Source: an uncultured Elusimicrobia bacterium
GTDB taxonomy: Bacteria; Elusimicrobiota; Elusimicrobia; UBA1565; UBA9628
DNA: 64,000 nucleotides
Assembly: GCA_903830945.1 (NCBI GenBank)
Contig: CAIKVT010000058.1
Span: 75,487 to 139,486 of the forward strand
Direction of reading: 5' to 3'
Positions 21,968 to 41,279 of this stretch are shown in pieces. The position numbers were made by a program, and so were the translations under genes. The notes beneath the pieces are model-generated. The model ran no database searches, was not told the DNA's origin, and worked only from the letters and a program-made list of their open reading frames with translations. Position 1 is the stretch's first letter. Each line of letters starts with the position of its first letter.

Positions 21968-23821
21968 CTAGCGGAGGATGATGTCGATCCGGGCCTGGCG
22001 GGCCTGCGGGGCGTCCACGACCAGGATGTCATCGACGCAAGAGACCCGGACCGCACGATCTGTAGCCGTGCAGGAGCGCAGTGGGCCGCTGGCCTGGAAG
22101 GACAAAGCCGGACTGCCCGCGGGCAGGTCGAGGCTCAGGACGATCTCTTTGGCGCGCGGCCCCGGGGCGAAGGAGAAGCGCGTCTGCGAGCGGGCCAGCC
22201 AGAATCGCGCCGCAACCCGCATGGTCATCAGCGTGTACTCCCGGGGCAGGCTCGTCAGGACCTGGCGCAGCAGCTCGGTTTGTTCCGGCCGGCCGTCCGG
22301 CGTGAGGGACCAAACGATCCAGCCGTCGTGCTGGGTGATGAGGCGCGCCGTGTCGAGGAGGGCTGATGAGGTGAGGGGTGGTGCGGGCCGGCGGGGTTCC
22401 GCGAAGGTGATGGGCAGCTCGATTAGGTCCGTTTCGCGGGTCATGGCCCGCCAGGACACAAGCCGGAAAGGCAGATGGGTCATCATCCCGTTGGCTGATA
22501 GGCTCGAGTCGTAGGCGTAGCCCGTGCGGGTCAGGGCCCAGTCCAAAGCCGGCGGATAGCTGAAATCAGGGGAACGGAAGCCGGCCACGGCGCCCGAGGA
22601 GAGCGTGCCGTCGAGGATGGCCTTGCTGACCTTGAGTTCGCCGAGTAAAGAGGCGTTGCGTGTAAAGCCTCGGACGTCCACATTGGGCCGGTAGGCGCGC
22701 GGGTCTAAAGGCGCGGGGTTCAAGGGCAGGGATTCGAAATCCGGACTGCAGGCCACGGAATGGCTGCCGATCTCATGGCCGGTCCGCGCTAGCTGTAGGG
22801 CCAGTCCGCGCAGCCGGGCATCGAAGAATTGGCTGGAGGAATCACTGGCCGCGACGCTGGTCTGAAAGAACCATGTGGCCCTGACGAGGCGGGCGGATTC
22901 TAGGGCCGAGAACTCCTCGGCTTGGGACACGCTGGCGCCGGGACCGAAGGAGTGGCTTAAAAGGAAGACGCCGCGGGCCCGGCCCGGGGCCGTGCGCAGG
23001 CGCAGCCAGAAGGGTTGGGCAGCTTCGTACCAGGCTCGGAACATGAGCGGCCAGACGTCAGAGCCCGGCTCGAAGCCGTTGGTGACGCTGCGGTGGGCGT
23101 CGAAGTCCCGCCCGGATTGGGGCCGCACGAAGAGGTCGCGCAGCTGGACGCCGATGGTGTAGACGCGGCCCGCGCCCAGGCGGTGGAGCACCAGGGCGGG
23201 TTCTTTGGTGTTCGTGAAGCTCGCCAGGACCTGGGTATCGGAGCCTGGCGCCGGGAAGAGAGCCGCGCTCCAGGGCCCTTCCCGGACCCGGGACGAGGCC
23301 AGTGGGACCTCCAGCTCTTGGGGCTGGTCGAATAAGGCCGGCCCGGGATCGGTCTTGGCCTGTAAGGTGAGCCCGCGCCGGGCGCGGGAGGCTCGGCTGC
23401 GCACCAGGCCGGTGAGCTCCGGCCAGAGATCGGCGGACGGCATCTGGAGGATGAGGACGCCTCCGTCCGAGACGTACTGTCGCAATGCCTCCCGCCCGGT
23501 GGGCGGCAGGCGCGTGGAACGGTCGTCTAAAGGGATGAAGATCACGCGGTGACGCACCGCAGCCTGGGCGTCCCGGGTCACAGTGAATGGCAGGCCGGCC
23601 GCCTGCAGGACGCGGGCTGCCGCGAAGGCCTGTTGGCTTTGGCTCAGCATGAGCACCGCGACCTGCGCCGGCATGAGGTCAGGATGGTCCTTGATGAGTT
23701 CCTCGTTGGGGGAGGCCAGGGCGTCGGGCGGGACCTCTTGGGTGGAGTGGACGGGCCGGTTAAGCCGCCAGAGGCCCAGCAGGATGATGGACAGGACGAT
23801 GAAGAAGGTCAGTCTTCTCAT
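21968..23821 (-). CDS. secreted polysaccharide deacetylase-like protein (CE4-like core with N-terminal GATase1/ThuA-like domain), paralog of the 27718..29631 gene
   Basis: Signal peptide. HEIGSHS motif (CE4 motif 2-like). N-terminal region parallels the paralog (VIFIPLDD...GGVLILQMP vs VIAVFPDL...GGATLIAVNP). Confidence 0.6.
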   Translation of the reverse strand: MRRLTFFIVLSIILLGLWRLNRPVHSTQEVPPDALASPNEELIKDHPDLMPAQVAVLMLSQSQQAFAAARVLQAAGLPFTVTRDAQAAVRHRVIFIPLDDRSTRLPPTGREALRQYVSDGGVLILQMPSADLWPELTGLVRSRASRARRGLTLQAKTDPGPALFDQPQELEVPLASSRVREGPWSAALFPAPGSDTQVLASFTNTKEPALVLHRLGAGRVYTIGVQLRDLFVRPQSGRDFDAHRSVTNGFEPGSDVWPLMFRAWYEAAQPFWLRLRTAPGRARGVFLLSHSFGPGASVSQAEEFSALESARLVRATWFFQTSVAASDSSSQFFDARLRGLALQLARTGHEIGSHSVACSPDFESLPLNPAPLDPRAYRPNVDVRGFTRNASLLGELKVSKAILDGTLSSGAVAGFRSPDFSYPPALDWALTRTGYAYDSSLSANGMMTHLPFRLVSWRAMTRETDLIELPITFAEPRRPAPPLTSSALLDTARLITQHDGWIVWSLTPDGRPEQTELLRQVLTSLPREYTLMTMRVAARFWLARSQTRFSFAPGPRAKEIVLSLDLPAGSPALSFQASGPLRSCTATDRAVRVSCVDDILVVDAPQARQARIDIILR

Positions 23822-25206
23822 TTTCGTTGAGCCATGCCTCTGCGCTCCATGCGTCCCCAGGAGCCGATGTGGAAGACATAGTCCCAGGTGCCCAGGATGC
23901 GCAGGATCGAGGTGAGCTGTCGGTATCCGAAGTTCTCAAGGCAGGCATAGAGGGTCAGGGCGAGCCACTGCCGGTACTTCGGGTAGGGCCGCGGCGTCAT
24001 CTCGCCGAGCAGCACCCCGGTCAAAGACAGAACCATGCCGCAGAAGAAGGCGGCCGCAAAGAAGGCCAGGGCGAAATCCGTCGAGACGGCCCCGACCCAC
24101 CAGCTCCAGGCGAAGAGGACGTAGCCTAGCAGCTCGATGATCACTCCCCAGCCTTCGAAGAGGAGCAGGAAGGGGTAGGCGAACATCCCCAGCGCGCCGA
24201 AGCGGGGGTTGAGGAACATCTCGTCGTGCTGGCCCAGCACCTCTAGGCAGCCTTTCTGCCAGCGCCGGCGTTGGCGGCTGAGCACGGTGATGTTGGACGG
24301 GACTTCGGTCCAGCAGACCGGGTCGGGGATGAACTGGATGGCGTAGTCGGTGTCGCCCTGCAGGCGCATGTGGGAGTGGAGGCGGGTGACCAGGTCCATG
24401 TCTTCGCCCACTGTCCCGGGTCGGTAGCCGCCGATGGCTATGACCGGGTCCTTCTCGAAAGTGCCGAACGCCCCGGAGATGATCATGAGCGCGTTGAAGC
24501 GGGAGAAACCGGTGCGCCCGCACAGGAAGGCTCGAAAGTACTCGATGACCTGGAAGGCCACCAAGGGGTTGAGACTCATCACCACTTCGACGACGCGGCC
24601 CTTCTCCACGCGGCAGCCGTTGGCTACACGGATGATTCCGCCGACCGCGATGACGCGACGGTCCGACTCCATGATGGGCTGGATGACGCTCTGCAGGGCG
24701 TCCGGCTCCAGGATGACGTCGGCGTCGATGGAGCAGAAGTAGGGGTGCAGCGAGAAATTCAAGCCCGCGTTAAGGGCGTCGGATTTTCCGCCGTTCTCCT
24801 TATCCACCACGGTGAGGTTGTGATGTGTGCGGGACTTGTAGGCCTGGCGTACCAGCCGCGTGGGCAGGCTGCCGACGTCTTCGACTTCGGTGGGGTAGAG
24901 CTGGAAGGCATGCTCCAGCTCGGCGAAGGTCCGGTCTTGGGAGCCGTCGTTGACCACGATGACCTCGTAGCGCATGTAGTCGAGGTGCAGGAGATTGCTG
25001 ACGGTGAGCGCGATGCCGACTTCCTCGTTGTAGGCGGGCACGATGACCGAGATGGGCGGGGTCAGGGGGCTGCGGATGAGCTGCGCGTAGCCGCCGTAGT
25101 TGCGCCGCAGCAGGTGCCGGTACACGGCCTGGAAAGCGAGCAGGGATATGATCAGGTATACGCCGTTGAGGATGAGGAAGTAATAGACCATCACAACATC
25201 CGTCAT
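23818..25206 (-). CDS. family-2 glycosyltransferase, poly-beta-1,6-GlcNAc synthase (PgaC/IcaA)-like processive synthase
   Basis: ATG 25206 (MTDVVMVYY); alternative GTG at 25236 overlaps the upstream stop (GTGA). TM helices flank a GT2 core with VIVPAYNEE, NDGSQD, SIDADV (DxD) and RQRRRWQKG (QxxRW). The track N-terminal 148 aa (Arg/His/Pro-rich) is rejected. Confidence 0.8.
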   Translation of the reverse strand: MTDVVMVYYFLILNGVYLIISLLAFQAVYRHLLRRNYGGYAQLIRSPLTPPISVIVPAYNEEVGIALTVSNLLHLDYMRYEVIVVNDGSQDRTFAELEHAFQLYPTEVEDVGSLPTRLVRQAYKSRTHHNLTVVDKENGGKSDALNAGLNFSLHPYFCSIDADVILEPDALQSVIQPIMESDRRVIAVGGIIRVANGCRVEKGRVVEVVMSLNPLVAFQVIEYFRAFLCGRTGFSRFNALMIISGAFGTFEKDPVIAIGGYRPGTVGEDMDLVTRLHSHMRLQGDTDYAIQFIPDPVCWTEVPSNITVLSRQRRRWQKGCLEVLGQHDEMFLNPRFGALGMFAYPFLLLFEGWGVIIELLGYVLFAWSWWVGAVSTDFALAFFAAAFFCGMVLSLTGVLLGEMTPRPYPKYRQWLALTLYACLENFGYRQLTSILRILGTWDYVFHIGSWGRMERRGMAQRK

Positions 25207-25232
25207 GTAGAGCAGCGCCGGCGCGTATTCGT

Positions 25233-25991
25233 TCACGGCTTCTTCTCCCGGAGGGCGTCCGTTGCGGTCTCCTGGAGCAGCTCCTTCATGACGCGGGGTG
25301 GGAAGGCCAGGCGATGGCGGTCGATGAGTTCTTTGATCCGGGGCCCTGAGGCCGGCCCGAACTCCAGCATGAGGGAGGCTAGGCGCGGCAGCATGGCCGG
25401 GGAGAGCCGGTCCGCGGCCTTCACGAAATAGGGTAAAGTGGCGGGGTTGCCGATGGCGGCCAGGGCGCGCAGGGCCACGAGCTTCATGTCCATGGGCTCG
25501 CGATCGAGGATGGCGAGTATGCCTACCACGGCTTGAGGGGCGCGCATGACGCCCAGGACTTCCATGGCGGTGCCGCGGCGCAGCTTGGCGCGGGATTTGA
25601 GGCCGGCGAGGTTGCGCTCTACGAGTCCCAGCCGATGCGCCGCCGTACACAGGGTCACGAAGGGTGGGCCCTTGAGGTGGCGCATGTTGTCCACCATGAC
25701 CTCCTGGACTACGGATTCATCGCCCCAGCGCCGGGGCCGGAGAGCGGCGATCACGTCTTCCAGGGGTTCTTCCATGAGGACTTTCTCGATGGCGGGGTCG
25801 TAAAGCTTGCGGCGGCCGGCGCGATAGCGGGACTGGAAGTACTGGTAGGTCCGAAATAGGATGGTGAATACGAAGAGGGCGAAGGCGATCCAAAACAGGA
25901 CGATGCTGGTGGCTATGACGAAGTTGAAGCTGAGCCGGCCTTCCGTGGCCTTCAGGGACAGCTTGAGGAATTGCTCGTTCCACTTTTCCAT
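25233..25991 (-). CDS. membrane-anchored HEAT-repeat (PBS-lyase HEAT-like) protein
   Basis: N-terminal TM (IATSIVLFWIAFALFVFTILF) followed by repeated A-L-x-A-L-G-N-P type HEAT-like units. Confidence 0.55.
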   Translation of the reverse strand: MEKWNEQFLKLSLKATEGRLSFNFVIATSIVLFWIAFALFVFTILFRTYQYFQSRYRAGRRKLYDPAIEKVLMEEPLEDVIAALRPRRWGDESVVQEVMVDNMRHLKGPPFVTLCTAAHRLGLVERNLAGLKSRAKLRRGTAMEVLGVMRAPQAVVGILAILDREPMDMKLVALRALAAIGNPATLPYFVKAADRLSPAMLPRLASLMLEFGPASGPRIKELIDRHRLAFPPRVMKELLQETATDALREKKP

Positions 25992-25999
25992 GGGGATTC

Positions 26000-26359
26000 T
26001 CAGGGGCGCCTAATCAGGGGGGCGATGGCCGCTTCGAGCTGGGCGGCGTTGAAGGGTTTGATAAGGTAGGCGTCGCCCCCGGCCTGGCGCGCGAATCGCT
26101 CATCCTCGGCGTAAGCTTTGGCAGTTAAGAATACGATGGGGATCTTGACGCCGGCCTGGCGCAGATCGATGCAGGCTTCTATGCCGCTTTTGCCGGGCAT
26201 CATGATATCCATGAGGATGAGGTCGGGGAGGTGCTTCTGGACCAGAGGGACCGCGTCCACACCATCGTCGGCTAGGTGCACATCAAAGCCGCGTTTTTTA
26301 AAGAAGTATTTGAGTAAAATTTGGATGTTGGGGTTATCTTCGAAGATGCAGACTTTCAT
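26000..26359 (-). CDS. stand-alone response-regulator receiver (CheY-like) protein
   Basis: 119 aa. Acidic pocket DD...DLILMDIMMPG with phospho-acceptor Asp, T/K motifs (LTAK, IKPF). Confidence 0.8.
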   Translation of the reverse strand: MKVCIFEDNPNIQILLKYFFKKRGFDVHLADDGVDAVPLVQKHLPDLILMDIMMPGKSGIEACIDLRQAGVKIPIVFLTAKAYAEDERFARQAGGDAYLIKPFNAAQLEAAIAPLIRRP

Positions 26360-26464
26360 GGACGTTAGAGATTATATTTTTTTTCATAGTGAGCGGTCCA
26401 GGACCGAAAAAATGTAATATCGTTTTGACCTCCTGGTCGGGAGGGACCAATTCAGGACTGAAGA

Positions 26465-27715
26465 ATGGATAAGGATGCTTTGCTGCAGAATTCAGCGGGC
26501 GGCGCTCTGGCGCGCAGCCAGGCTGAGCAGGCCTGCGAACGCAGGAGGATGGAGGAGTCCCTGCGCGCCAGCGAGCTCAGGCTGCGCACCGTGGTCGACA
26601 AGCTGCCGGTGGGCGTGTGGCTGACCGACGTGCAGGGCAAGATCGTCTTGTGCAATCAGGCCGGGGAGGGCATTTGGGGAGGGGTCCGTTTCTCCGGCAT
26701 CGAGCAGTACGGCCAATACCCGGGCTGGTGGCACGACACGGGACGGCGTATCCAGCCTCATGAATGGGCGTCTGTGCGGGCCCTCTCGCGCGGTGAGACT
26801 TACGTCAACGAGGTTATCGACATCGAGACCTCGGACGGACGGCGCAAGACCATTTCCCATTCCGCCATCCCGGTGCGCGACGACGCCAACCAGATCACCG
26901 GCATCGTGGTCATCAACGAGGACATCACCGAGCGCAAGCGCGCCGAGTCGCGGCTGCGCGAGAGCGAGGAGCGCCACCGCCGCATCACCCAGGCTCTCTC
27001 CGACTACGTGTATACGGTCCATGTTCAGGATGGCCGGGCCGTGGCCACGGAGCACGGCGCGGCCTGCGAGGCGGTCACCGGCTATACTCGCGACGATTTT
27101 TCCTCCAACCCCTACCTCTGGCTGCGCATGGTGGTGGAGGCCGATAAGGCCGCGGTGCTCGAGCAGGGCCGGCGCCTGCTGGCCGGGGCTAAGCTGGGTC
27201 CCTTCGAGCACCGCATCGTACGCAAGGACGGCCAGACGCGTTGGGTGTGCAATACTTCGGTGTCCCATTTCGACGCGCAGGGACGGATGCTTTATTATGA
27301 CGGTGTCATTCAGGACATCACGGATCGTAAGGAAGTGGAGGACGCTTTGCGTTTGACTCAGTTCGCCATGGACCATTGCGCCATCCCGGTGCTCTGGATA
27401 GGACCTTCTGGACGCTTCCTTTACGTCAACGAGGCCGCAGCGGAGTCTTTGGGTTATCCCCGCGAACAACTCCTTTATCTCGGCGTGCCCGATATCAACC
27501 CGGACGTCCCGATCGGCCGCTGGTCAGTGCATTGGGCGGAGCTCAAGCGCGAGAAAATATTGCGTTGGGAAGGGCGTCACCGCCGTCAGGACGGCCGGGT
27601 CTTTCCGGTCGAGATCACGGCTAACTACCTGGAGTTTAAAGGCCGCGAGTACGGTTTCAACTTCGTGCGCGACATCACGGAGCGCAAGCGCTCCGCAGAG
27701 CCTCCGGGCAGTTGA
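26465..27715 (+). CDS. multi-PAS sensor protein (3 PAS/PAC units) with no output domain
   Basis: Three repeats of the PAS pattern separated by ERK(R/E) linkers. Ends ...TERKRSAEPPGS exactly where the HisKA dimerisation helix of a histidine kinase would start. Confidence 0.8.
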   Translation: MDKDALLQNSAGGALARSQAEQACERRRMEESLRASELRLRTVVDKLPVGVWLTDVQGKIVLCNQAGEGIWGGVRFSGIEQYGQYPGWWHDTGRRIQPHEWASVRALSRGETYVNEVIDIETSDGRRKTISHSAIPVRDDANQITGIVVINEDITERKRAESRLRESEERHRRITQALSDYVYTVHVQDGRAVATEHGAACEAVTGYTRDDFSSNPYLWLRMVVEADKAAVLEQGRRLLAGAKLGPFEHRIVRKDGQTRWVCNTSVSHFDAQGRMLYYDGVIQDITDRKEVEDALRLTQFAMDHCAIPVLWIGPSGRFLYVNEAAAESLGYPREQLLYLGVPDINPDVPIGRWSVHWAELKREKILRWEGRHRRQDGRVFPVEITANYLEFKGREYGFNFVRDITERKRSAEPPGS

Positions 27716-27717
27716 AT

Positions 27718-29631
27718 CTATAGAAAATGCAGCGTGTGAGTGCCGCGCAGGCGGCGCAATAGCAGGCCGTCGGGGGCCTGCTCGGCCGCGGCGTCGGACG
27801 GCTCGATGCGGTCGAACTTCCATCCCGTCGGCGCGCGCAGCAGGAGACCGTCGATCGGTTTCATTGCGGAGACGGTCACCGTCTTGGCGGCGGCGTTCGC
27901 GTCTACCTCGACTGCGTCACGCGCCGCCCACCAGGCGCCCATCTGGGACAGCGTGCCGAACCAGGCGCGCTCCTTCCACGTCGTGATGAAGCCTTTCTCG
28001 AAGTCGAGCTTGCCCTTGATGACGTCCGGATGGATCAGGATGACGAACAGGCCCCCGTAGCCGGACAGCGTTTCGGCCAACGCGAGCGCCTGCGGCAGGC
28101 GGTCGCTCAGGACCGGCGACGCCTCGTCCTCGATCGTGACCGGAAACTCATATAGGGGCGTCTCGACGCGTGACTCGCGTGACTCGGTCAGGCGGTAGGG
28201 CAGATGAGTCAGCGAGTTATTCGCCGTGGACGCCGAGCTGTATAGGTAGCCCGCCGCGCGCAGGGCCTGCGGCAGACAATAGGGGTCCGATAGATGGCCT
28301 GGGCGGAACGAGACGATCGGCGGGACGCCCAGCAGGGCCTCGAGCAGGAATTTGCTGACGCGCAATTCGCCGAGGATGGTGCCGCCCTCGGTGATGGTCT
28401 TGTTCATGACGCGCGGCTGGTACGAGGGATACCTTTCCTGTCCGCTTCCCATCGGGAACTTTGCAAACTGCCGAGAGTGCGCCACCGAGTGGCTTGCCAG
28501 TTCGGGAGCGGCCGCGGCGATCTGGCGCATCAGCGCCAAGTTTCTTGGGATGAAAAAGGCCGCATCGCTGAAGTCGGTCATGTGCTTCGTCTGTAGGAAA
28601 TAAGTCGCCGGAATGCCCGCCTGACGCTCGTAGTCTTCGTAGGCCGTGGAGTTCCCCACGGAGGGCAGATAGTCGATGTCATGTGTCACAAGCACGGACA
28701 GCGCCTTGCCCATCGGGACCGTGCCGAGCGTCGCCGCGGCGGGTTCGCCGCGGCGGTAGAGTTCCGCGATCAGGCGCATGAACACGTCGGCGGCGGGTTC
28801 ATAGTCGTTTGTGTACGAACGCTCGATCTGTTCATCGCGCAAGCTGTGGCTGACGTGCATGAGTTGTCCAAGGTCCAGGCCAATCGCGTAGGCCGTCCCA
28901 CGACCGAGATGTCGACGGAGCATCGCGGCGGAGCCGCCGTCGAAATCGGCCAGGGGCGGTTCGGCTGTGCCAGAATAGCCGACGGTGTCCAGGTCGCGTC
29001 CTCCCGTCAGCCATGTCAGCGGCACCGTCGTCTCCTTCGGGTGCGTCAACGGCGCCAGTTCGCGGATCGCGGGCCGGAAGCGCCATGTACCGCGCGCGCG
29101 GGAGGATTTGGCTTCTCGATATCCGAAGATATCCTTCCATGACGCGGCCGATGGGTTTACGGCGATCAGGGTCGCGCCGCCGCGCACGGCAGTCTCGAGC
29201 CCTGCCCGCGCCTCGGCGGGCAATCCGGCGTCCGTCAGGTCTGGGAAGACCGCGATGACGCGATGCGCGGCAGCCGCGCGCCAGTCCCGCGTCAGCATGA
29301 ATGGTACGCCCCAGCTCTTGAGGGCGTGCGCGAACGCCAGCCAACCCCAGCCTTTATCGGTGCGCGTCAGTAGGACCGCCAGGCGCGAGCGGCCGCCATT
29401 CGCGTACGTCTCGATAGGCGTTGGCGCGCCCTCAACGACGATACTGTGCTCCTGCGGCCCTGAGACACCGAGCGAGTCGGTCCGACCGACAGGCGTCGCT
29501 GTTTCCTCGATGACGTCGTGTTCCCGCGGCCCCCAGACACCGAATGAGCCGGTCCGATCCCAAAGGAAGACCGCCGCGATGAGGAGAGCGGCTGCCACCG
29601 TCGTGGCGCTCGCGACGAGTCGAGTCTTCAT
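27718..29631 (-). CDS. secreted CE4 polysaccharide deacetylase (PgaB/IcaB-like core) with N-terminal GATase1/ThuA-like domain
   Basis: Signal/TM at N-terminus. LVTHDIDY (motif 1, DD) and ELASHSVAHS (motif 2, HSxxH) of CE4. Confidence 0.7.
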   Translation of the reverse strand: MKTRLVASATTVAAALLIAAVFLWDRTGSFGVWGPREHDVIEETATPVGRTDSLGVSGPQEHSIVVEGAPTPIETYANGGRSRLAVLLTRTDKGWGWLAFAHALKSWGVPFMLTRDWRAAAAHRVIAVFPDLTDAGLPAEARAGLETAVRGGATLIAVNPSAASWKDIFGYREAKSSRARGTWRFRPAIRELAPLTHPKETTVPLTWLTGGRDLDTVGYSGTAEPPLADFDGGSAAMLRRHLGRGTAYAIGLDLGQLMHVSHSLRDEQIERSYTNDYEPAADVFMRLIAELYRRGEPAAATLGTVPMGKALSVLVTHDIDYLPSVGNSTAYEDYERQAGIPATYFLQTKHMTDFSDAAFFIPRNLALMRQIAAAAPELASHSVAHSRQFAKFPMGSGQERYPSYQPRVMNKTITEGGTILGELRVSKFLLEALLGVPPIVSFRPGHLSDPYCLPQALRAAGYLYSSASTANNSLTHLPYRLTESRESRVETPLYEFPVTIEDEASPVLSDRLPQALALAETLSGYGGLFVILIHPDVIKGKLDFEKGFITTWKERAWFGTLSQMGAWWAARDAVEVDANAAAKTVTVSAMKPIDGLLLRAPTGWKFDRIEPSDAAAEQAPDGLLLRRLRGTHTLHFL

Positions 29632-32123
29632 CAGGGCTGGAAGCGGTAGAAGGCGTTCAATGCGTCGATGTGGCGCAGGATGGCCGCATTGCCGGCCTGC
29701 TCCCGCTCGGGTGTGACTAGGTTCCGCTCTCCGGCCGGGTCGCGCTCCAGGTCGAAGAAATAGGACGCGAAGTTCATCCCATCGGCGATGTAGAGGCGGC
29801 GGCCGTCATCCTGGAGCAGGCCGTAGACCGGGGCGTAGCTGGAGACTACGGGCCTCTCGGCGCGCGCGGTGCGCGCGAGCTCCTCGTGGCTGGAGGCTAA
29901 CAGCGGTCGTCCCAGGACCTCCCCGTCCGTCTGAGGAGAGCGGCCGAGCAGGGCATAGAGGGTGGGAGTGATGTCCGTCAGGAAGGCCGCGGAATCCGTG
30001 TCCCAGACCAGGCTGCGGCGCAGGCGCTCCGGGACGTGCATGATGAGCGGCACGCGCAGGATCTCTGGGAAGATGGTGTAGGCGTGCCCTCTGCGGCCGC
30101 CTTCGCCTAGAGAGTCGCCATGGTCCGCGGCTAGGACCAGGATGCTGTCCTCATAGAGACCGGCTTTCTTCAGTTTGGCGAGGAAGCGTCCGAAACAGGC
30201 GTCGAGCCGGGCCACGCGGCTGGCATAGGGCGCATCGAAGCCGGGGTAGCCCTTTCCATCCACGGCGCGCTGCCCTTCCCGGTCGATGACCGAGACGTGC
30301 AGGTCCTGCGTCTGCAGGTAGGAGAACACGGGGCCCGGCCCCCGCAGGGCCAGCTTGTCGGAGAGCTCCGCCAAAGTCGGACAGGTCGTGGGCAGGGCGA
30401 CGGGGGGTGGGCCGCCCAGAGGAGTCAGAGCCGGGGAACGCTCGAGCAGCTCCCAAAGGATCGGATCGACCGCGACCAGGCTCCGATAGCCCTCCTCCTT
30501 GGTGAGGCGTTCTAGACAGTTCATGGGCGCGAAAGGCGTCACGTACTGTTTGTGCGGGAGTCGGGCGCCGGCCCAGATGGAGGGCTCGGAGAGGCCTGTG
30601 GCACCGTAGGAGGTGAAAGCCCGGCGCCAGACCAAGGAATCTTTGGCGAAGGCGTCGATGGCGGGGGTGAAGTCCGCCTTGGGATTGTAGGTTCCGAGAT
30701 AGTCCGGCCGGAGGCTGTCGATGACGATGATGAAGATATTGGGTTTGCGTGTCAACGCTCCCGGAGGCGCGCCCGCCATGCCGATGTCACGGGGAGCGAT
30801 CGGGGTCTGGCGGGATATGTTGGTGTTGGCGTTCAGGACACCATAGAAATTCCCCGCCGCGCTCCGGTGCCGGAAGAGCCGCCGCGCGGCTCGTGCGGAC
30901 AATTCCTCTTCCGCGAGCTTGCGCACCGCCGGAGCGACCGCCTTACCGGCCAGCCGGAGCTGAGGGGATGCGTAGGTCAAGGCCGCGTCCGCGCTCCAGG
31001 CCAAGAGGATGCAGACCGAGACGGCCGCCAGGTCCCGCATCCCAGGGTCGGCCGCGGGGCCGGGGCGCCGGCGCATCCATCCGTGGAAGAAGACGAAGGC
31101 CGCGGCCCAGATGGCTAGAACGCCGAAGGTGGCGATGACGCGGTCCCAATCCACGCTGATGGCGAAGCGGAGGACCCAAGGGGAGGCGGCCAGCAGCAAG
31201 AGGCCGGCCAGCCGGCCCGGTAGGCTCTTCCAGGCCGGGCGCCAGAGAGACGCCAGGGGGGCGGTTAGGAAGTCCAAGGCGTCTACCATAGGATCCGGGC
31301 GAGCCGTCGCTAGGTCGCTGGCTTGGCCAAGGAGCGCTAGGACCGTGGCTCCGGTCCCTGCCGCGGCCCAGATCCAGGCCGCCGGGCCGGAGAAGGAGAG
31401 TGAGCTCAGAAGCAGGGAGTCGAGGGCCCAGAAGATGAAGGCGCCGAGCCCGGTTAGGAGCAGCAGCGCTTCGCTGCGGACCCTGCTGCCGGGCAGAATC
31501 CTTGCCGCGGTCCGGGCCAGGTCGCAGCAGATGAACAGGGCCAGGAAGGTGAGGAGGTGGGAGAGCAGGCTTTCTCCCAGCGCGAGTGCCGCGATCCAGC
31601 GCACGGAGCCGGCCCAGGCCGTGCCGTGTGCCAGCAGGTGCGCGGTCGTGAAGGCCGTAAAAATAAGACCCGCGGCCAGGAGCGCGGCGGGCAGGCGCGC
31701 GCGCAGCGCGGCCGCATCGGGCTCATCCGCCCAGGTCAGCCGTCGTTGCCTTGCGAGCAACCGGAGGGTCTCCCAGGATATCAGAGGCAGCCAGCAGAGC
31801 GCGCTCAGGAGCAGGCTCCAACCGTTGTTGCCGACCTGTCCGGACATAAGCGGCCAGGACACGGCAAGCGCCATTGTGCCGGTCGCCAAGGCGAAGGCCT
31901 GACGCCACCTGGAGAGCGTTAGCGCCGCGAGCGCCAGCGCGGCGCCCAGGAAGATGGCGTGAACTCTTAAGAAGAAGCCGACCCAAAGGGGATAATGATG
32001 GTCCTGGATGAAATTTTTCCAGGAGAACGGGATGTAGCAGAGCAGACAGTAGAGAGAGGTGGCCGCGGCGACGGAGAAAAGGGCCCACCGGGCTAGGGCC
32101 GCGAGCCGCAGGGAGTTTTTCAT
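29631..32123 (-). CDS. polytopic membrane protein with C-terminal periplasmic sulfatase/alkaline-phosphatase-superfamily domain (LtaS/EptA/BcsG-like transferase)
   Basis: About 11 N-terminal TM helices. C-terminal PNIFIIVIDSLRPDYLG...AADHGDSLGE...H matches the sulfatase-family metal-site pattern. Confidence 0.75.
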   Translation of the reverse strand: MKNSLRLAALARWALFSVAAATSLYCLLCYIPFSWKNFIQDHHYPLWVGFFLRVHAIFLGAALALAALTLSRWRQAFALATGTMALAVSWPLMSGQVGNNGWSLLLSALCWLPLISWETLRLLARQRRLTWADEPDAAALRARLPAALLAAGLIFTAFTTAHLLAHGTAWAGSVRWIAALALGESLLSHLLTFLALFICCDLARTAARILPGSRVRSEALLLLTGLGAFIFWALDSLLLSSLSFSGPAAWIWAAAGTGATVLALLGQASDLATARPDPMVDALDFLTAPLASLWRPAWKSLPGRLAGLLLLAASPWVLRFAISVDWDRVIATFGVLAIWAAAFVFFHGWMRRRPGPAADPGMRDLAAVSVCILLAWSADAALTYASPQLRLAGKAVAPAVRKLAEEELSARAARRLFRHRSAAGNFYGVLNANTNISRQTPIAPRDIGMAGAPPGALTRKPNIFIIVIDSLRPDYLGTYNPKADFTPAIDAFAKDSLVWRRAFTSYGATGLSEPSIWAGARLPHKQYVTPFAPMNCLERLTKEEGYRSLVAVDPILWELLERSPALTPLGGPPPVALPTTCPTLAELSDKLALRGPGPVFSYLQTQDLHVSVIDREGQRAVDGKGYPGFDAPYASRVARLDACFGRFLAKLKKAGLYEDSILVLAADHGDSLGEGGRRGHAYTIFPEILRVPLIMHVPERLRRSLVWDTDSAAFLTDITPTLYALLGRSPQTDGEVLGRPLLASSHEELARTARAERPVVSSYAPVYGLLQDDGRRLYIADGMNFASYFFDLERDPAGERNLVTPEREQAGNAAILRHIDALNAFYRFQP

Positions 32124-32956
32124 TTGGACCCTTCTCGCTTCAATTGAGCTAGGGTGGCATGGGCCCGCAGGGCACAGGCGCGGTCGTCCAGTTTGTCGCA
32201 GACCCGCGCGAGTATGCGGTAGAGGTCCGCGTAGGAAGGGGACTGGCTCACGGCAGTGCGCAGCAGAGCCTGGGCGCGGGCGAACTGTCCCATCGCCTCG
32301 GCCAGCTGAGCTCCGGCCAAGAGCGCATCGACGTTTTTGGGATGGGCCTTGAGCACTTCATCTACGAGGCGCTGAGCCTGCGCGCGATCGCCTTCCTCGC
32401 GCAGGATGCGCGCCAGCCCCAGTTTGGCGTCGCTGTAGTCGGGAGTGGTCCTTAGGATGGAGGAATAGAGTGTTTTGGCTTCCTGGCTTTGGCCGGCCTG
32501 TTCCAAGGGCAGGGCCAGGAATAAGGCCAAGTCAGGTTGGGAAGGGTCAAGTGCCAGGCAGCGGCGGTGGGCGGCTATGGCTTGGTCGGTCCGGCCTAGT
32601 TTCTCGTAGGCTTGGCCTAACTGGGGACAGGCGTCCGTGGGCGTGGGTGTGACCGTGATGAAGAGTTCCCAGGAGGCCGCTTCCTTTGGAAAATCATTGA
32701 GCTGGGCATAAGCTCGGGCTTGGGCGGATAGGTATATAGGATTGTTCGGAGCGCCGCGTAGGAGCTTTTGGACGAGTCCCAGGGTTCGTGCGGGTTCGCC
32801 CTCGTCGCTGGCCTCCTGGACCTGGGCCCAGAGTGCTTTGGCTTTTTCCGGGGATAGGCGTGCGGGCCGGTCGCCGGTCGCGCTGCCAGCGGTCCAGAAG
32901 AGAACCGCGGCCATGAGGATCCTCCCTGCGAGCGGCTGCAGGGCCCGAGCATCCAT
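32120..32956 (-). CDS. secreted TPR-repeat protein
   Basis: Start set at ATG 32956 (MDARALQPLAGRILMAAVLFWTAGSATG, signal-like). At least 5 TPR-like units. The track N-terminal extension lies inside the upstream gene and is rejected. Confidence 0.6.
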   Translation of the reverse strand: MDARALQPLAGRILMAAVLFWTAGSATGDRPARLSPEKAKALWAQVQEASDEGEPARTLGLVQKLLRGAPNNPIYLSAQARAYAQLNDFPKEAASWELFITVTPTPTDACPQLGQAYEKLGRTDQAIAAHRRCLALDPSQPDLALFLALPLEQAGQSQEAKTLYSSILRTTPDYSDAKLGLARILREEGDRAQAQRLVDEVLKAHPKNVDALLAGAQLAEAMGQFARAQALLRTAVSQSPSYADLYRILARVCDKLDDRACALRAHATLAQLKREGSK

Positions 32957-34848
32957 CAGAAGTTGTAGCGGGCCTGGAGGCCGAGTGAGTAGGACTGGTC
33001 GCGCACCGTTGTCGTGGACACTCGCCCCAGGGCCTTGAGCGCGAGGTTCTCCCGTTGGTACCATTCTAGCTCGCCTATATAGGCGTTGCCCTCGTAGTGG
33101 CTCCGGATCGCATCCCAGATGAAGCCGTGTTCGTAGCCCACCATGCTCCAGAGCCCACCGAAGCGTCGGGGGTGGATTCCTTCCCCGCCCCGGCAGCCCC
33201 AACAGCAGGGGCAGGCCTGGTTCCAACCGTGTCGCCAGTAGGCTCCCATCCAATGGTCTTGCTCGCTGGTTGATAGGTAGTTGCCTGCCGGCAGCAGGTA
33301 TTGGAGCGTGGAGAGCCGATAGCTGCCGGAGAATTCCTTGCACCAGGGCAGCCAGCCCGTGGCTTCGGCGTTGAAATCATCGGTGTGGTTGGCATCGGTG
33401 AAGAAGGTCCGGCCGTAAGAGAGGGAGAGGAGGTACTTGTCTTCTTGGAGCCGGCGCGCCATGATGCTGATGCGGTCCATGTCGACATAGCCCAGGCGGT
33501 TATCCGGGGTGGCTCCGTAGAACTCCTGGGGACTGCGCGAATAGCGCGCCTGGAGAAGGTTGTTGCCTGATTCTTTCGTGGCTAGGAGCGACCAGGTCTT
33601 GTATGTCGTGTGCTCGGAGTAGTTGTTGAGTCCGGCGCGACCTAGCAGGCCTAAGCCGAGGATGTAGGTCTCGAATTCGCCCTGCATGGAATCCTCGCGC
33701 AGCAGGGCTAAGTACGTGCTGCTTCCTGCGCCGCGCAAGTATGTCGGGGACCGGGTCAAGGTGAGTCGGGCGTTTCCTGCCTGGGTGTGCCACTCCCCAT
33801 AGAGTCGCGCCCGGGAGAACTGGGTGCGGCCCAAGCCCGCGCCGTGGATGTCATTGAGCAGGGATTGGCCGTACTCGCCCTCGAGTCTCACATTGCGCGT
33901 GGGGTCGGTCTCCATGCCGAGGGAATAGCGCTGGTCGAGAATGTTGTAATACGTGAAGCCTTGTGTGTCGTTGCGCTGCGCCTCCTGTCCGTATTCGGCG
34001 CCTCCGATGAAAGCAAGCTTGGCTGAGGACCGGTAGCGGGCCCGCAGCCCGCCGGAACGGCCTTCGTAGATGATGCGCTGGGGGCTGGCCGTGTTGAGAC
34101 CTTCTTGAGAAAGAGACTTGTAGATGCGGCCGGTAGGGAATATCCCGCTGGACCAGGACCTTTTTGAATCATCGAGTCTGCGCCAAGCGGCCGGGTCGCA
34201 GGGATCCGCTTGCGTCATTCCCTCCAGGGCGACCTGGACGCCTGGGTTGTCTCGCAGTCCTTTCCGGGCGCGGGCCATGAGGCCTAGGATGTAGGCGCTG
34301 TGCGGGGACTGGGCATCCCATCTTTGGAGGTAGCCGAGGGCCTCCTGGTACTCATCCAGGGAGAGGCAGACCAAAGAGAGCCCCTCGAAGGCGCCGCCGC
34401 TCTTGGGATCGAGCTTCAGCATTTTAAGGAAAATGGTCTTGGCCTTGGTGAGGTCGTCGCGTTGGAGCGCGGCCATGCCTTCGTCGTAAGATGGCGCGGC
34501 GGGCGCGGGGGCGGCATTCCCTGTCGGTAAAAGGCCCTCGCGGGCGCGGGCCATGAGGCCGAGGATGTAAGCACTGTGCGGGGATTGGGCGTCCCATCGC
34601 TGGAGGTAGCCGAGGGCTTCCGCGTATTGCTCTAGGGAGAGGTAGACCGATGAGAGTCCTTCCAAGGCGCCGCGACTTTCGGGGTCGCGCTCCAGCAGTT
34701 TTAGGAAGATGGCTTTGGCCCCTTGGAGGTCGCCGTGTTGGAGCGTGGCTATGCCCTCCTCGTAAGATGGCGCGGCGGCCTCGGCCGGCGCGGCGCGCAA
34801 GGGGGCGGCGGCTAAGGAGGCCAGCAGGAGTAAGGAGGCGCCGGTCAT
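32956..34848 (-). CDS. outer-membrane exopolysaccharide export porin, PgaA/BcsC-like (N-terminal TPR region + C-terminal beta-barrel)
   Basis: Signal peptide. TPR units carrying an internal tandem duplication. C-terminal half rich in alternating amphipathic strands and ending ...LGLQARYNF (OMP C-terminal Phe). Confidence 0.6.
   Translation of the reverse strand: MTGASLLLLASLAAAPLRAAPAEAAAPSYEEGIATLQHGDLQGAKAIFLKLLERDPESRGALEGLSSVYLSLEQYAEALGYLQRWDAQSPHSAYILGLMARAREGLLPTGNAAPAPAAPSYDEGMAALQRDDLTKAKTIFLKMLKLDPKSGGAFEGLSLVCLSLDEYQEALGYLQRWDAQSPHSAYILGLMARARKGLRDNPGVQVALEGMTQADPCDPAAWRRLDDSKRSWSSGIFPTGRIYKSLSQEGLNTASPQRIIYEGRSGGLRARYRSSAKLAFIGGAEYGQEAQRNDTQGFTYYNILDQRYSLGMETDPTRNVRLEGEYGQSLLNDIHGAGLGRTQFSRARLYGEWHTQAGNARLTLTRSPTYLRGAGSSTYLALLREDSMQGEFETYILGLGLLGRAGLNNYSEHTTYKTWSLLATKESGNNLLQARYSRSPQEFYGATPDNRLGYVDMDRISIMARRLQEDKYLLSLSYGRTFFTDANHTDDFNAEATGWLPWCKEFSGSYRLSTLQYLLPAGNYLSTSEQDHWMGAYWRHGWNQACPCCWGCRGGEGIHPRRFGGLWSMVGYEHGFIWDAIRSHYEGNAYIGELEWYQRENLALKALGRVSTTTVRDQSYSLGLQARYNF
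34220..34775. repeat. intragenic tandem duplication (2 x 276 bp, about 85% identical) inside the PgaA-like gene
   Basis: Protein repeats APSYEEGIATLQHGDLQGAKAIFLKLLERDP... and APSYDEGMAALQRDDLTKAKTIFLKMLKLDP..., both ending ...GYLQRWDAQSPHSAYILGLMARAR. Nucleotide period 276 (e.g. 34286 vs 34562). Confidence 0.6.
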
Positions 34849-35231
34849 TTTCCTGCGGTGACCTTGGCGATGACGGCCCGAAGGTCCTTCGGGTCGAAGG
34901 GCTTCTCGAAGAAGACCGCCACCGAGGGGATGGCCTCGAAGAGGTGGCGCATGTCGCCTTTGGCCGTGACGACGACGATGGGCAAGGCCGCGGTGCGCGG
35001 GCAGTTCCGGATGGCGAGGGCCGCAGTATAGCCATCCATGATGGGCATCATCACATCCAGGATCATGAGGTCGGGCAGGACCAAGGCCTCGTCCGAGGGA
35101 TCGACACCCAACACGCGCAGGGCTTCTTGGCCGTTGCCGGCGGAGGAAACGTTATGCCCGGATTTTTCCAGGATGAAGCGCATCAGGGCGACGATGTGTT
35201 CTTCGTCGTCGACGATGAGTATTTTTGCCAT
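34845..35231 (-). CDS. stand-alone response-regulator receiver (CheY-like) protein
   Basis: 128 aa. MAKILIVDDEE...DLMILDVMMP...VVVTAK...EKPF receiver motifs. Confidence 0.8.
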   Translation of the reverse strand: MAKILIVDDEEHIVALMRFILEKSGHNVSSAGNGQEALRVLGVDPSDEALVLPDLMILDVMMPIMDGYTAALAIRNCPRTAALPIVVVTAKGDMRHLFEAIPSVAVFFEKPFDPKDLRAVIAKVTAGK

Positions 35232-35264: not shown

Positions 35265-35777
35265 ATGGGAATCGAGGGGGCGGTCATCCTTTTGAGGGAG
35301 GTCCGGGTATTCCTGTCCGGGCTGCGTCGAGAGCTCCCGGAAATTTTTCTTAGGCCGACGTTTTTTTCCGCAGTTCCGCCCGCGGTCCCTGTCCCGGTCC
35401 GGGTGCGTCGTGCCGGTCCGAAAGATGCCGTCCGTGAGCTCTTTGAGTCCCGCGTGAAGCACTGGAGCGTACTGATGGGGTTCGCGCCCAAACGCGTGTT
35501 CCTTAAGAATCAGAGGACGCTATGGGGCAGCTGTTCTACGCGCGGCAACCTTAACTTCAACCGGGCCCTGGCGGATGCTCCGGCCGAGATCGTGGACTAC
35601 GTGGTTATCCACGAGCTGGCCCATCTCAAGGAGATGAACCATTCCCGTCGCTTCTGGGCCGTGGTCGAAGCTTGGTGCCCGCAGCAGAAGCAGCGCCGTC
35701 TCTGGCTGCGCCGGAACGTCTCCTTGTTGAAGCATCTCGCCTCGTCGAGCAGGAGCAGGACCCCAGTCGTCTCATAA
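35265..35777 (+). CDS. YgjP/DUF45-family (M48-like HExxH) metal-dependent hydrolase, apparently N-terminally short
   Basis: WGSCS...NLNFN...VDYVVIHELAHL..HS..FW is the YgjP signature. Only 170 aa versus about 230 typical. Confidence 0.65.
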   Translation: MGIEGAVILLREVRVFLSGLRRELPEIFLRPTFFSAVPPAVPVPVRVRRAGPKDAVRELFESRVKHWSVLMGFAPKRVFLKNQRTLWGSCSTRGNLNFNRALADAPAEIVDYVVIHELAHLKEMNHSRRFWAVVEAWCPQQKQRRLWLRRNVSLLKHLASSSRSRTPVVS

Positions 35778-41056: not shown

Positions 41057-41279
41057 CTTCTTTGAGGATATCACAGGCACTGTAGAATCGTCAGCGGCGG
41101 AAGGCCTAGTCGGCTGAGGTTATGCGGCCTATGTGCCCCTAGGCTTTAGGGCCTAAAGCGGCAGAGCCCGGGAGGCTGGGAACGATAGGTCTAAAGATTC
41201 GTCGGTCTGGGGCTGCGGACCCATGCGGGCGCAGGATGACCCTGATATCATAGAACCAGTCCCGCAGAAGGGCTAAATA

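Follow-up and report, generated by a model that had tools for sequence, protein, structure and literature searches.

A putative synthase-dependent envelope-polysaccharide locus built on a conserved receiver-HEAT-GT2 core in an uncultured Elusimicrobiota bacterium

Results

The genome of an uncultured Elusimicrobiota bacterium carries, at positions 21968-35231 of the 64,000-nucleotide stretch analysed (the window), ten genes organized around a conserved and widespread core formed by one or more receivers, a single-pass HEAT-repeat membrane protein and a PgaC/IcaA-like family 2 glycosyltransferase (GT2). Judging from motifs and gene neighbourhoods, this core has gained in this lineage a lipid-headgroup-transferase-like enzyme, a deacetylase with intact motifs and a dead copy of the latter.

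Organization of the locus

Nine of the ten genes are co-directional and translationally coupled, on the minus strand, and one, coding for a PAS protein, lies on the opposite strand; the positions of the open reading frames match those of the preliminary description of this DNA. Start and stop codons overlap at the junctions inside both minus-strand blocks, which supports the existence of two operons; as previously described, each of them begins with a receiver that stands alone. The CheY-like RR1 (34845-35231, minus strand, 128 aa) opens operon 1 and overlaps the start of the following gene by ATGA. RR2 (26000-26359, minus strand, 119 aa) opens operon 2, downstream of a sigma70-like promoter match on the same strand (26371-26400, TGGACC-18-TATAAT) that fits 10 of 12 positions and is a consensus match only. 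Both receivers exceed the Pfam Response_reg cut-off of 30.2 bits (RR1: E = 1.1e-21, 77.5 bits; RR2: E = 5.4e-27, 94.6 bits), and their translations show the acidic pocket (DD), the phospho-acceptor D and the conserved T and K but no output domain. Pfam searches also recovered TPR, Sulfatase, Glycos_transf_2 and three PAS domains, in agreement with the domain calls made earlier, but the CE4, HEAT and barrel assignments are weaker than had been implied.

Between the two operons, and likewise in accordance with the preliminary description, there is a PAS-only protein (26465-27715, plus strand, 416 aa) with three PAS domains (PAS_4, PAS_9 and PAS_3; E = 1e-19 to 1e-24) and no output domain. Its gene is convergent with that of the deacetylase DeacA and divergent from RR2; a near-identical contig encodes a 544-aa version, PAS-only as well, and the gene is absent from the Elusimicrobiota relatives L087 and L088. 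No kinase is encoded within the locus, and nothing links it to the hybrid histidine kinase at 47247 once put forward as a candidate for its control.

A widespread receiver-HEAT-GT2 core

The GT2 gene (23818-25236, minus strand, 472 aa) was taken to start at the GTG at 25236 and not at the start of the 610-aa open reading frame. Its product matches Glycos_transf_2 (E = 1e-22) and Chitin_synth_2 (E = 1.6e-7) in Pfam, and among curated families its nearest is TIGR03937 (PgaC_IcaA; E = 1.7e-36). The score of 126.1 bits is nevertheless below the curated equivalog cut-off of 422.3 bits for PNAG synthases, and identity with Escherichia coli PgaC is 25% (E = 1e-24). An HMM of the GT2 family scores PgaC at 116 bits, BcsA at 32 and NfrB at 12. 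Invariant residues in 21 relatives comprise D97, D171-x-D173, E278-D279 and Q322-R323-x-R325-W326. With these D, DxD, ED and QxxRW motifs and transmembrane (TM) segments at both ends, the protein has the sequence hallmarks of a processive polysaccharide synthase. It can be classified by sequence as PgaC/IcaA-like but not as an orthologue, so that the former label "PgaC-like" holds for its closest family and does not extend to membership of the Pga system.

Directly upstream, the HEAT protein (25233-25991, minus strand, 252 aa) has a single TM segment (aa 24-42), followed by an Arg/Lys-rich stretch and a predicted cytoplasmic HEAT-repeat domain. Its own matches to Pfam HEAT_2 and HEAT_PBS are weak (HEAT E = 2e-3); relatives match better (E = 5.6e-15 in locus L036). 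A HEAT gene directly precedes the GT2 gene in 46 of 51 metagenomic loci with GT2 relatives (42-48% identity), and, of the 39 GT2-family loci with enough flanking sequence, 24 have a same-strand receiver gene no more than 3 kb upstream. Rosetta-stone fusions (HEAT-GT2 in L038, Deac-TM-HEAT in L159) were also found. In L006, L003 and L036 a kinase, an Hpt protein or extra receivers adjoin the module, and in L004 and L093 RR1 orthologues are in tandem with RR2-type receivers. The receiver-HEAT-GT2 module occurs in at least 597 metagenomic loci among the matches listed, and a protein search for it returned thousands of matching proteins. We propose that the HEAT protein is a co-subunit or adaptor of the synthase. 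Our literature search found no published description of a core combining a receiver, a HEAT membrane protein and a PgaC-like GT2; as a widespread unit, it was also absent from the preliminary description.

Most loci with this core do without two kinds of gene found here: of the 42 receiver-HEAT-GT2 loci that span 8 kb or more, 39 lack a deacetylase gene within 10 kb and 40 lack a gene for an alkaline phosphatase (AP)-superfamily protein. The deacetylase and AP genes are thus accessories rather than parts of the core.

A candidate phospho-headgroup transferase

The 830-aa AP-superfamily protein (29631-32123, minus strand) combines a membrane part of 11 predicted TM helices, with no Pfam match, and a Sulfatase domain (E = 1.5e-22) predicted to be periplasmic by the positive-inside rule. 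Residues D469, T509, H609, D667, H668 and H680 are invariant. The formylglycine motif C/S-x-P-x-R of sulfatases is replaced by T-G-L-S-E, with T509 invariant, and His680 occupies the position of their sulfate-binding Lys. In hhalign comparisons, the protein shares a DHGxSLGExGxxxH motif with EptA, in an alignment to EptA 419-499 (probability 83), while the OpgB alignment (probability 56) covers the N-terminal half of the domain. The fold is nearest to S1 sulfatases and PbgA/YejM, with EptA and BcsG further off, and the best NCBIfam matches are choline-sulfatase and arylsulfatase, far under their cut-offs. The protein is not a family-level member of MCR-12 (19 bits, 1200 needed) or LtaS (18.7 bits, 970 needed), and its eleven predicted helices stand in place of the five-helix N-terminal membrane domain of EptA/MCR, LtaS and OpgB.

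The pattern of lipid-headgroup phosphotransferases, namely a Thr nucleophile, an Asp/Glu-Thr-Asp-His metal site and flanking His residues, is present in the protein, which makes it a candidate phospho-headgroup enzyme. The Thr nucleophile, the His pattern and the EptA motif sustain the earlier suggestion of an LtaS/EptA-type protein instead of a sulfatase. We rejected its assignment to the S1 formylglycine sulfatases, on account of T-G-L-S-E and His680 and despite the best fold matches, and also a relationship with BcsG, the other type proposed, since no homology to BcsG was found.

This protein family is rare, and relatives at ~31% identity lie outside polysaccharide loci. The gene nonetheless occupies an equivalent position in L087 and L088 (42-43% identity) and adjoins the receiver-HEAT-GT2 genes in two unrelated metagenomic loci, L108 and L121. 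Because this linkage is conserved in relatives, the association is not incidental. In the literature we found no report of a PgaC-like synthase being coupled with a transferase of the AP superfamily.

One intact and one degenerate deacetylase

DeacA (27718-29631, minus strand, 637 aa) is a predicted membrane-anchored periplasmic protein with a GATase1-like domain, a CE4 domain and a C-terminal beta-sandwich. The Pfam match to CE4 (E = 9e-4) is below the cut-off, but a structure model confirmed the CE4 fold as well as the GATase1-like N-terminal domain. Residues D318, D320, H381, H385 and H534 are conserved across 22 relatives; their roles (catalytic Asp, metal triad, catalytic His) were assigned by analogy with known CE4 motifs. 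DeacA therefore keeps the full motifs and, by this analogy, is a CE4 enzyme with an intact catalytic site. In other phyla, its family co-occurs with GT2, HEAT, receiver and TPR/YaiO barrel genes in about half of 48 long loci; in other Elusimicrobiota its orthologues are unlinked to a synthase.

DeacB (21968-23821, minus strand, 617 aa) is a paralogue of DeacA (31% identity over both domains, E = 1e-49), with a weak DUF4350 match on its N-terminal domain and no CE4 match in Pfam. Motif 1 reads HSFG for HDID, motif 2 HSVAC and motif 5 SLT for LIH, leaving S, G, H, C and T at the positions of the catalytic Asp, metal triad and catalytic His. The catalytic Asp, one metal-binding Asp and the catalytic His are consequently missing, as they are in all four Elusimicrobiota loci; in L087, L088 and L004 the orthologues next to GT2 show the same losses in motifs 1 and 5. 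The second deacetylase of the preliminary description thus lacks the catalytic His and Asp of such enzymes, and we propose that it acts as a non-catalytic periplasmic polymer-handling subunit.

TPR proteins and a putative outer-membrane barrel

The second gene of operon 1 (32956-34848, minus strand, 630 aa) codes for a putative outer-membrane beta-barrel exporter. Two near-duplicate TPR units occupy about aa 25-200 (TPR_16, E = 6.7e-16). The 420-aa C-terminal part matches no Pfam family, has only 21 relatives among 1.8 billion representatives and, in profile comparisons, matched neither PgaA nor YaiO-type barrels nor any PDB chain. Its Gly/Tyr/Ser/Thr/Arg-rich composition, alternating-hydrophobic segments and C-terminal aromatic beta-signal (YSLGLQARYNF) suggest an outer-membrane beta-barrel exporter. 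The protein scores 20.6 bits against PgaA TIGR03939 (cut-off 366), in the TPR part only, and a profile of 15 relatives also matches PgaA only in that region. Of the "PgaA-like TPR/beta-barrel porin" once described, the TPR portion is confirmed, but there is no significant similarity to PgaA and the barrel half has no family match. The next gene encodes TPR2 (32120-32956, minus strand), a secreted or periplasmic TPR protein of 278 aa from the ATG at 32956, or of 264 aa from the alternative ATG at 32914 used in other gene calls. It matches TPR_14 and TPR_19 (E about 1e-21) and is kept in the same position in L087 and L088.

Discussion

These observations support a synthase-dependent envelope-polysaccharide locus whose proposed working, to which we give roughly even chances, would be as follows. 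The GT2 would polymerise a sugar polymer, most likely containing N-acetylhexosamine, and translocate it across the inner membrane. As a GT2 co-subunit, the HEAT protein would make the activity of the synthase depend on whether the receivers are phosphorylated, a role that falls in known systems to PgaD or to PilZ with c-di-GMP. In the periplasm, the catalytically dead DeacB would bind the chain and hand it on, DeacA would partly deacetylate it, and the 11-TM AP enzyme, through its Thr nucleophile, would transfer to the polymer a phospho-headgroup taken from a membrane lipid. The TPR proteins would form a scaffold leading to an outer-membrane barrel specific to this lineage.

Other explanations deserve consideration. 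The locus might be a true PNAG (poly-beta-1,6-GlcNAc) system, a diverged pgaABCD with extra decoration as initially proposed, given that PgaC/IcaA is the closest curated GT2 family (at the E-value of 1.7e-36 given above), that the GT2-family HMM gives PgaC a much higher score than BcsA or NfrB, and that a CE4 deacetylase and a TPR protein with a putative porin are present. We regard this as improbable. An AP protein that modifies or senses a lipid (LPS or phospholipid, as in EptA or PbgA/YejM) or hydrolyses a phosphodiester, co-regulated with the exporter for envelope remodelling and decorating no polymer, seems to us rather unlikely, although by no means negligible: its gene overlaps its neighbours inside the TPR/exporter operon, keeps that placement in L087 and L088 at the moderate identity reported, is linked again to the core in L108 and L121, and has its full set of putative catalytic residues invariant. 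That it is an ordinary sulfatase placed there by chance, as its best sequence and fold matches to S1 sulfatases and its sub-threshold choline-sulfatase and arylsulfatase hits might suggest, is very hard to sustain; the invariant T-G-L-S-E, the Lys-to-His change, synteny in at least three lineages and the codon overlaps with both neighbours contradict it.

To our knowledge, c-di-GMP acts as the gate in synthase-dependent exopolysaccharide systems such as those for cellulose, PNAG, alginate, Pel and Nfr. The coupling of a PgaC-like synthase to a HEAT subunit and stand-alone receivers suggests a phosphorylation-gated alternative. A bolder proposal, which we advance with considerable doubt, is that receiver-HEAT-GT2 represents a large, undescribed class of phosphotransfer-switched synthases in which the receiver docks on the HEAT adaptor, replacing c-di-GMP, joined here by lipid-derived phospho-decoration through a new 11-TM AP transferase and by a dead-deacetylase chaperone. 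If true, the transferase would bring to a further class of polymers the lipid-headgroup decoration known from cellulose (BcsG), the periplasmic glucans of OpgB and OpgE, and teichoic acids. The dead CE4 paralogue, conserved as it is, would offer a clear example of a pseudoenzyme taken over as a subunit of a secretion complex.

Comparison with known systems

Like PgaABCD/IcaADBC, the locus follows a synthase-dependent logic and encodes an inner-membrane processive GT2 of ~450 aa (D, DxD, ED and QxxRW motifs), a CE4 deacetylase of the periplasm and a putative outer-membrane component with TPRs. It differs from PgaABCD in several respects. There is no PgaD, the coupled gene upstream of GT2 being that of the single-TM HEAT protein, and the locus contains no c-di-GMP element (PilZ or GGDEF), the HEAT protein and receivers occurring instead. 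The GATase1-like, CE4 and beta-sandwich architecture has no match to the C-terminal glycoside-hydrolase-like domain of PgaB, the C-terminal domain of the putative exporter has no PgaA homology, and the locus additionally encodes an AP-superfamily enzyme and a dead paralogue of the CE4 protein. With the sub-cut-off GT2, the missing PgaD and the lack of significant similarity to PgaA or PgaB, we rejected a set of true pgaABCD orthologues; the "PNAG-like machine" of the preliminary description is well founded as a synthase-dependent envelope-polysaccharide locus, but the label holds as an analogy only.

The AP protein recalls BcsG, OpgB/OpgE, LtaS and EptA/MCR-1 in having a membrane-anchored, predicted periplasmic domain of this superfamily in which Thr is the nucleophile and Asp and His make up the metal site. 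It has the DHGxSLGExGxxxH motif in common with EptA and, as for BcsG, which makes phosphoethanolamine cellulose, and OpgB, which with OpgE decorates periplasmic glucans, its gene is encoded together with a GT2 polysaccharide synthase. PbgA/YejM, with five TM helices in about 586 aa, has a role in LPS homeostasis that is not known to require catalysis, whereas the protein described here has all its putative catalytic residues invariant and belongs to an exporter operon.

The GATase1/ThuA-like N-terminal domain is indeed present in the deacetylase paralogues, but may be less unusual than formerly stated because PelA, from the Pel system, may have a comparable multi-domain layout. DeacA differs from PelA and Agd3 by having no glycoside-hydrolase domain and a CE4 domain nearer to 3rxz, HP0310 and ArnD-type enzymes; the synthases differ too, PelF of the Pel system being a GT4 and the one described here a GT2. 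Finally, compared with CE4 pseudoenzymes such as Bacillus anthracis BA3943 (PDB 7bkf), DeacB is GT2-coupled, predicted to be membrane-anchored, multi-domain and associated with a Gram-negative-type envelope.

Organization of the locus

The locus (21968–35231) consists of two blocks of minus-strand genes separated by one plus-strand gene, and all the genes listed for it in the preliminary description were found as given. Block 1 encodes a stand-alone receiver (RR1, 34845–35231), a TPR protein of 630 aa that has a long C-terminal domain (32956–34848), a second TPR protein (TPR2, 32120–32956), an 830-aa polytopic protein of the alkaline-phosphatase superfamily carrying a Pfam Sulfatase domain (AP protein, 29631–32123), and a 637-aa deacetylase-like protein (DeacA, 27718–29631). 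Block 2 encodes another receiver (RR2, 26000–26359), a 252-aa HEAT-repeat protein (25233–25991), a GT2 synthase (23818–25236; its start is the GTG at 25236, not that of the 610-aa ORF), and a 617-aa paralogue of DeacA (DeacB, 21968–23821). The gene in between, on the plus strand (26465–27715), has a product of 416 aa that contains three PAS domains. Inside either block, the stop codon of each gene overlaps the start codon of the next, and RR2 is preceded by a sigma70-like match. Pfam E-values were strong for the receivers, TPRs, Sulfatase, GT2 and PAS domains and weak for CE4 and HEAT. An 873-aa ORF outside the locus (38459–41080, minus strand) had no Pfam match at E ≤ 1e-5.

Several independent assemblies carry the same locus, and the nearest named homologues, which are the basis for assigning the locus to Elusimicrobiota, occur in MAGs of that phylum (75% identity for GT2, 55% for the AP protein). 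We rejected DeacA as a fixed component: orthologues 60–64% identical to it are unlinked to the synthase, and it is missing, together with the PAS gene, from the related Elusimicrobiota loci L087 and L088. Given this absence and the DeacA orthologues found elsewhere, the two-operon split looks like an insertion between the AP gene and RR2. A near-identical contig, derived from a different sample, encodes a PAS-only protein of 544 aa, a DeacA of 616 aa and a TPR/putative-barrel protein of at least 726 aa, such that the accessory part of the locus differs between strains.

A receiver-HEAT-GT2 core

All the motifs of processive synthases (D, DxD, ED and QRxRW) are invariant in GT2. PgaC/IcaA is its nearest curated family, in agreement with the "PgaC-like" label it had received, but its score of 126 bits against a cut-off of 422, its 25% identity to Escherichia coli PgaC and the scores of the GT2-family HMM (116 bits for PgaC, 32 for BcsA and 12 for NfrB) indicate that it is not a PgaC orthologue.

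We surveyed the context of 80 metagenomic loci, with GT2 sequences mostly 42–48% identical to that of the window (62% in one case). Of the 51 loci with sufficient flank, 46 had a HEAT-type ORF directly upstream of GT2 and in the same orientation, and a receiver was present within 3 kb upstream of GT2 in 24 of 39. Adjoining kinases, Hpt proteins or extra receivers were frequent (e.g., L003, L006 and L036). In a Spirochaetota MAG that also has a DeacA-family gene in the locus, HEAT and GT2 are fused into a protein of ~944 aa (L038, 15430–18294). Another fusion, directly upstream of GT2 in L159 (6994–9963), is a single unbroken ORF in which a deacetylase domain that retains its motifs is joined to a TM helix and a HEAT domain; it acts as a Rosetta stone linking periplasmic and cytoplasmic partners. 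The HEAT protein of the window has a single TM helix with an Arg/Lys-rich stretch after it, and its HEAT domain is accordingly expected in the cytoplasm. From these associations we infer that receiver, HEAT protein and GT2 form one functional unit.

The residues required for phosphorylation are present in both RR1 and RR2. RR1-type and RR2-type receivers stand in tandem ahead of HEAT-GT2 in two comparison loci (L004 and L093), so both receivers are part of the module. The locus itself encodes no kinase. A hybrid histidine kinase had been put forward as a candidate partner of the receivers; although a REC-HisKA-HATPase protein does exist at 47247–49433, nothing links it to the locus.

The alkaline-phosphatase superfamily protein

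We rejected, on the basis of synteny, the possibility that the AP gene is a chance neighbour of the synthase. In L087 and L088, with 42–43% identity, genes for a receiver, a TPR/C-terminal-domain protein, a TPR protein, the AP protein, a receiver, a HEAT protein, GT2 and a DeacB-like protein follow one another on one strand, and in the metagenomic loci L108 and L121, with GT2 44–47% identical to that of the window, a 42–50% identical AP gene adjoins receiver-HEAT-GT2. Family members at ~31% identity are located elsewhere. The association proposed in the preliminary description is real, yet an accessory of some lineages. A second possibility, that the protein is a sulfatase, would agree with its Pfam domain and with fold-search figures of 26–34 for S1 sulfatases, compared with 30.6 for PbgA/YejM, 27.6 and 25.7 for LtaP and LtaS, 24.6 for EptC, 22.0 for BcsG and 21 for EptA/MCR-1. 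The active site excludes this role, because T509 aligns to the formylglycine Cys of a phosphonate monoester hydrolase and H680 to the sulfatase Lys. D469, T509, H609, D667, H668 and H680 are invariant among 18 aligned family members, and the active site fits a putative phospho-headgroup transferase.

The LtaS/EptA/BcsG-type assignment initially made held for E. coli EptA, which aligned over a DHGxSLGExGxxxH stretch (probability 83), and less well for OpgB, but not for BcsG, which gave no alignment. The group transferred (phosphoethanolamine or phosphoglycerol had been suggested) and its acceptor are presumptive. The AlphaFold2 model (pLDDT 84.5) contains eleven TM helices, and loop charges agree with an N-in, domain-out topology. 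The N-terminal membrane domain had no Pfam match; inspection by eye of the first periplasmic loop revealed no invariant acidic residue and hence no GT-C-like signature. This architecture is rare, with 31 matches among 5.8 billion sequences.

In two Elusimicrobiota-type loci (L176, 8734–12853; L004, 14327–15118), a gene of the sphingomyelin-synthase-like headgroup transferase family PAP2_C occupies the place expected for the AP gene and may be an alternative module with an equal role. In L176, the receiver-PAP2_C pair diverges from a YgjP-like gene and converges on a DeacA orthologue, a layout mirroring that of RR1 to DeacA beside a YgjP-like gene (35265–35777) in the window.

Deacetylase-like paralogues

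Sequence searches of PDB chains with DeacA and DeacB yielded nothing useful, so we took the fold of DeacA from its AlphaFold2 model (pLDDT 88.7), which has three domains including a C-terminal beta-sandwich. DeacB is 31% identical to DeacA across both domains. Both had been described as CE4 deacetylases, and a lack of catalytic His or Asp on alignment had been named beforehand as evidence against the interpretation. DeacB lacks these residues and DeacA has them: in DeacB the Asp pair is replaced by Ser and Gly, one metal His by Cys and the catalytic His by Thr. Its GT2-adjacent orthologues (L087, L088 and L004) have likewise lost the Asp pair and the catalytic His, and all DeacB-type sequences retain a T-H-x-P motif. 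We read DeacB, from this substitution pattern, as a probable conserved pseudoenzyme that would retain polymer handling.

The DeacA family (members of about 620–650 aa) is widespread. Scanning of genomes yielded 273 stretches that matched it, all of them individually confirmed by tblastn; they come from Nitrospira, Burkholderiales, Methylobacillus, Acidobacteriota, Verrucomicrobiota, Gemmatimonadota, Spirochaetota and others. Of 48 long loci, 23 contained the GT2 and HEAT genes and 24 a receiver; a TPR/YaiO-type barrel protein was encoded in 19, and an AP gene in none. In Nitrospira-type versions, a conserved ~559-aa protein with no Pfam or NCBIfam match is encoded between GT2 and the TPR/YaiO-barrel gene (L036, 5781–7460, Nitrospira); it occurs in 17 other long DeacA-family loci (including L135, L137 and L158). 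In the cultured Methylobacillus flagellatus (L028, 6792–13545), the DeacA-family gene comes after genes for a histidine kinase and for a response regulator of the sigma54 type, which resembles the PEP-CTERM regulator PrsR (386 bits, below the cut-off of 503). As no GT2 of the window's family lies within 10 kb of it, the DeacA family also serves other polysaccharide systems.

The putative exporter

The 630-aa protein combines an N-terminal TPR part with a C-terminal part of 420 aa, which had no Pfam match and only 21 relatives in a representative library. Its composition, alternating-hydrophobic segments and terminal YSLGLQARYNF fit a putative outer-membrane barrel. The term "PgaA-like" denotes an expected role: no homology could be demonstrated, and a profile of the domain matched neither PDB entries, PgaA nor the Nitrospira YaiO-type barrel outside the TPR part. 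A Cys-rich stretch, WNQACPCCWGCRGGEG (33193–33240, ~aa 537–552), breaks the putative barrel domain and is missing from the family consensus. The TPR region (34200–34800) contains an internal near-duplication, where APSYEEGIATLQHGDL...HSAYILGLMARAREG recurs as APSYDEGMAALQRDDL...HSAYILGLMARARKG.

Comparison with known polysaccharide systems

As a whole, the preliminary description was right in what it observed and only partly so in its interpretation. Searches of the literature on HEAT, GT2 and receiver combinations and on Elusimicrobia or Nitrospira exopolysaccharides retrieved no description of the receiver-HEAT-GT2 module, and an operon-classification paper (PMC7112194) does not mention HEAT, sulfatase, response regulator, Elusimicrobia or Nitrospira. 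Nothing describing this gene combination was found in the literature on PNAG phospho-decoration; that on pEtN, PNAG and BcsG comprised only cellulose and general biofilm papers. The interest of the locus lies in this widespread core, in its rare AP-superfamily partner and in the conserved dead deacetylase. It is a synthase-dependent polysaccharide system that differs from known ones and in which, by analogy, the HEAT protein would occupy the place that PgaD or a PilZ domain has in c-di-GMP-gated synthases.
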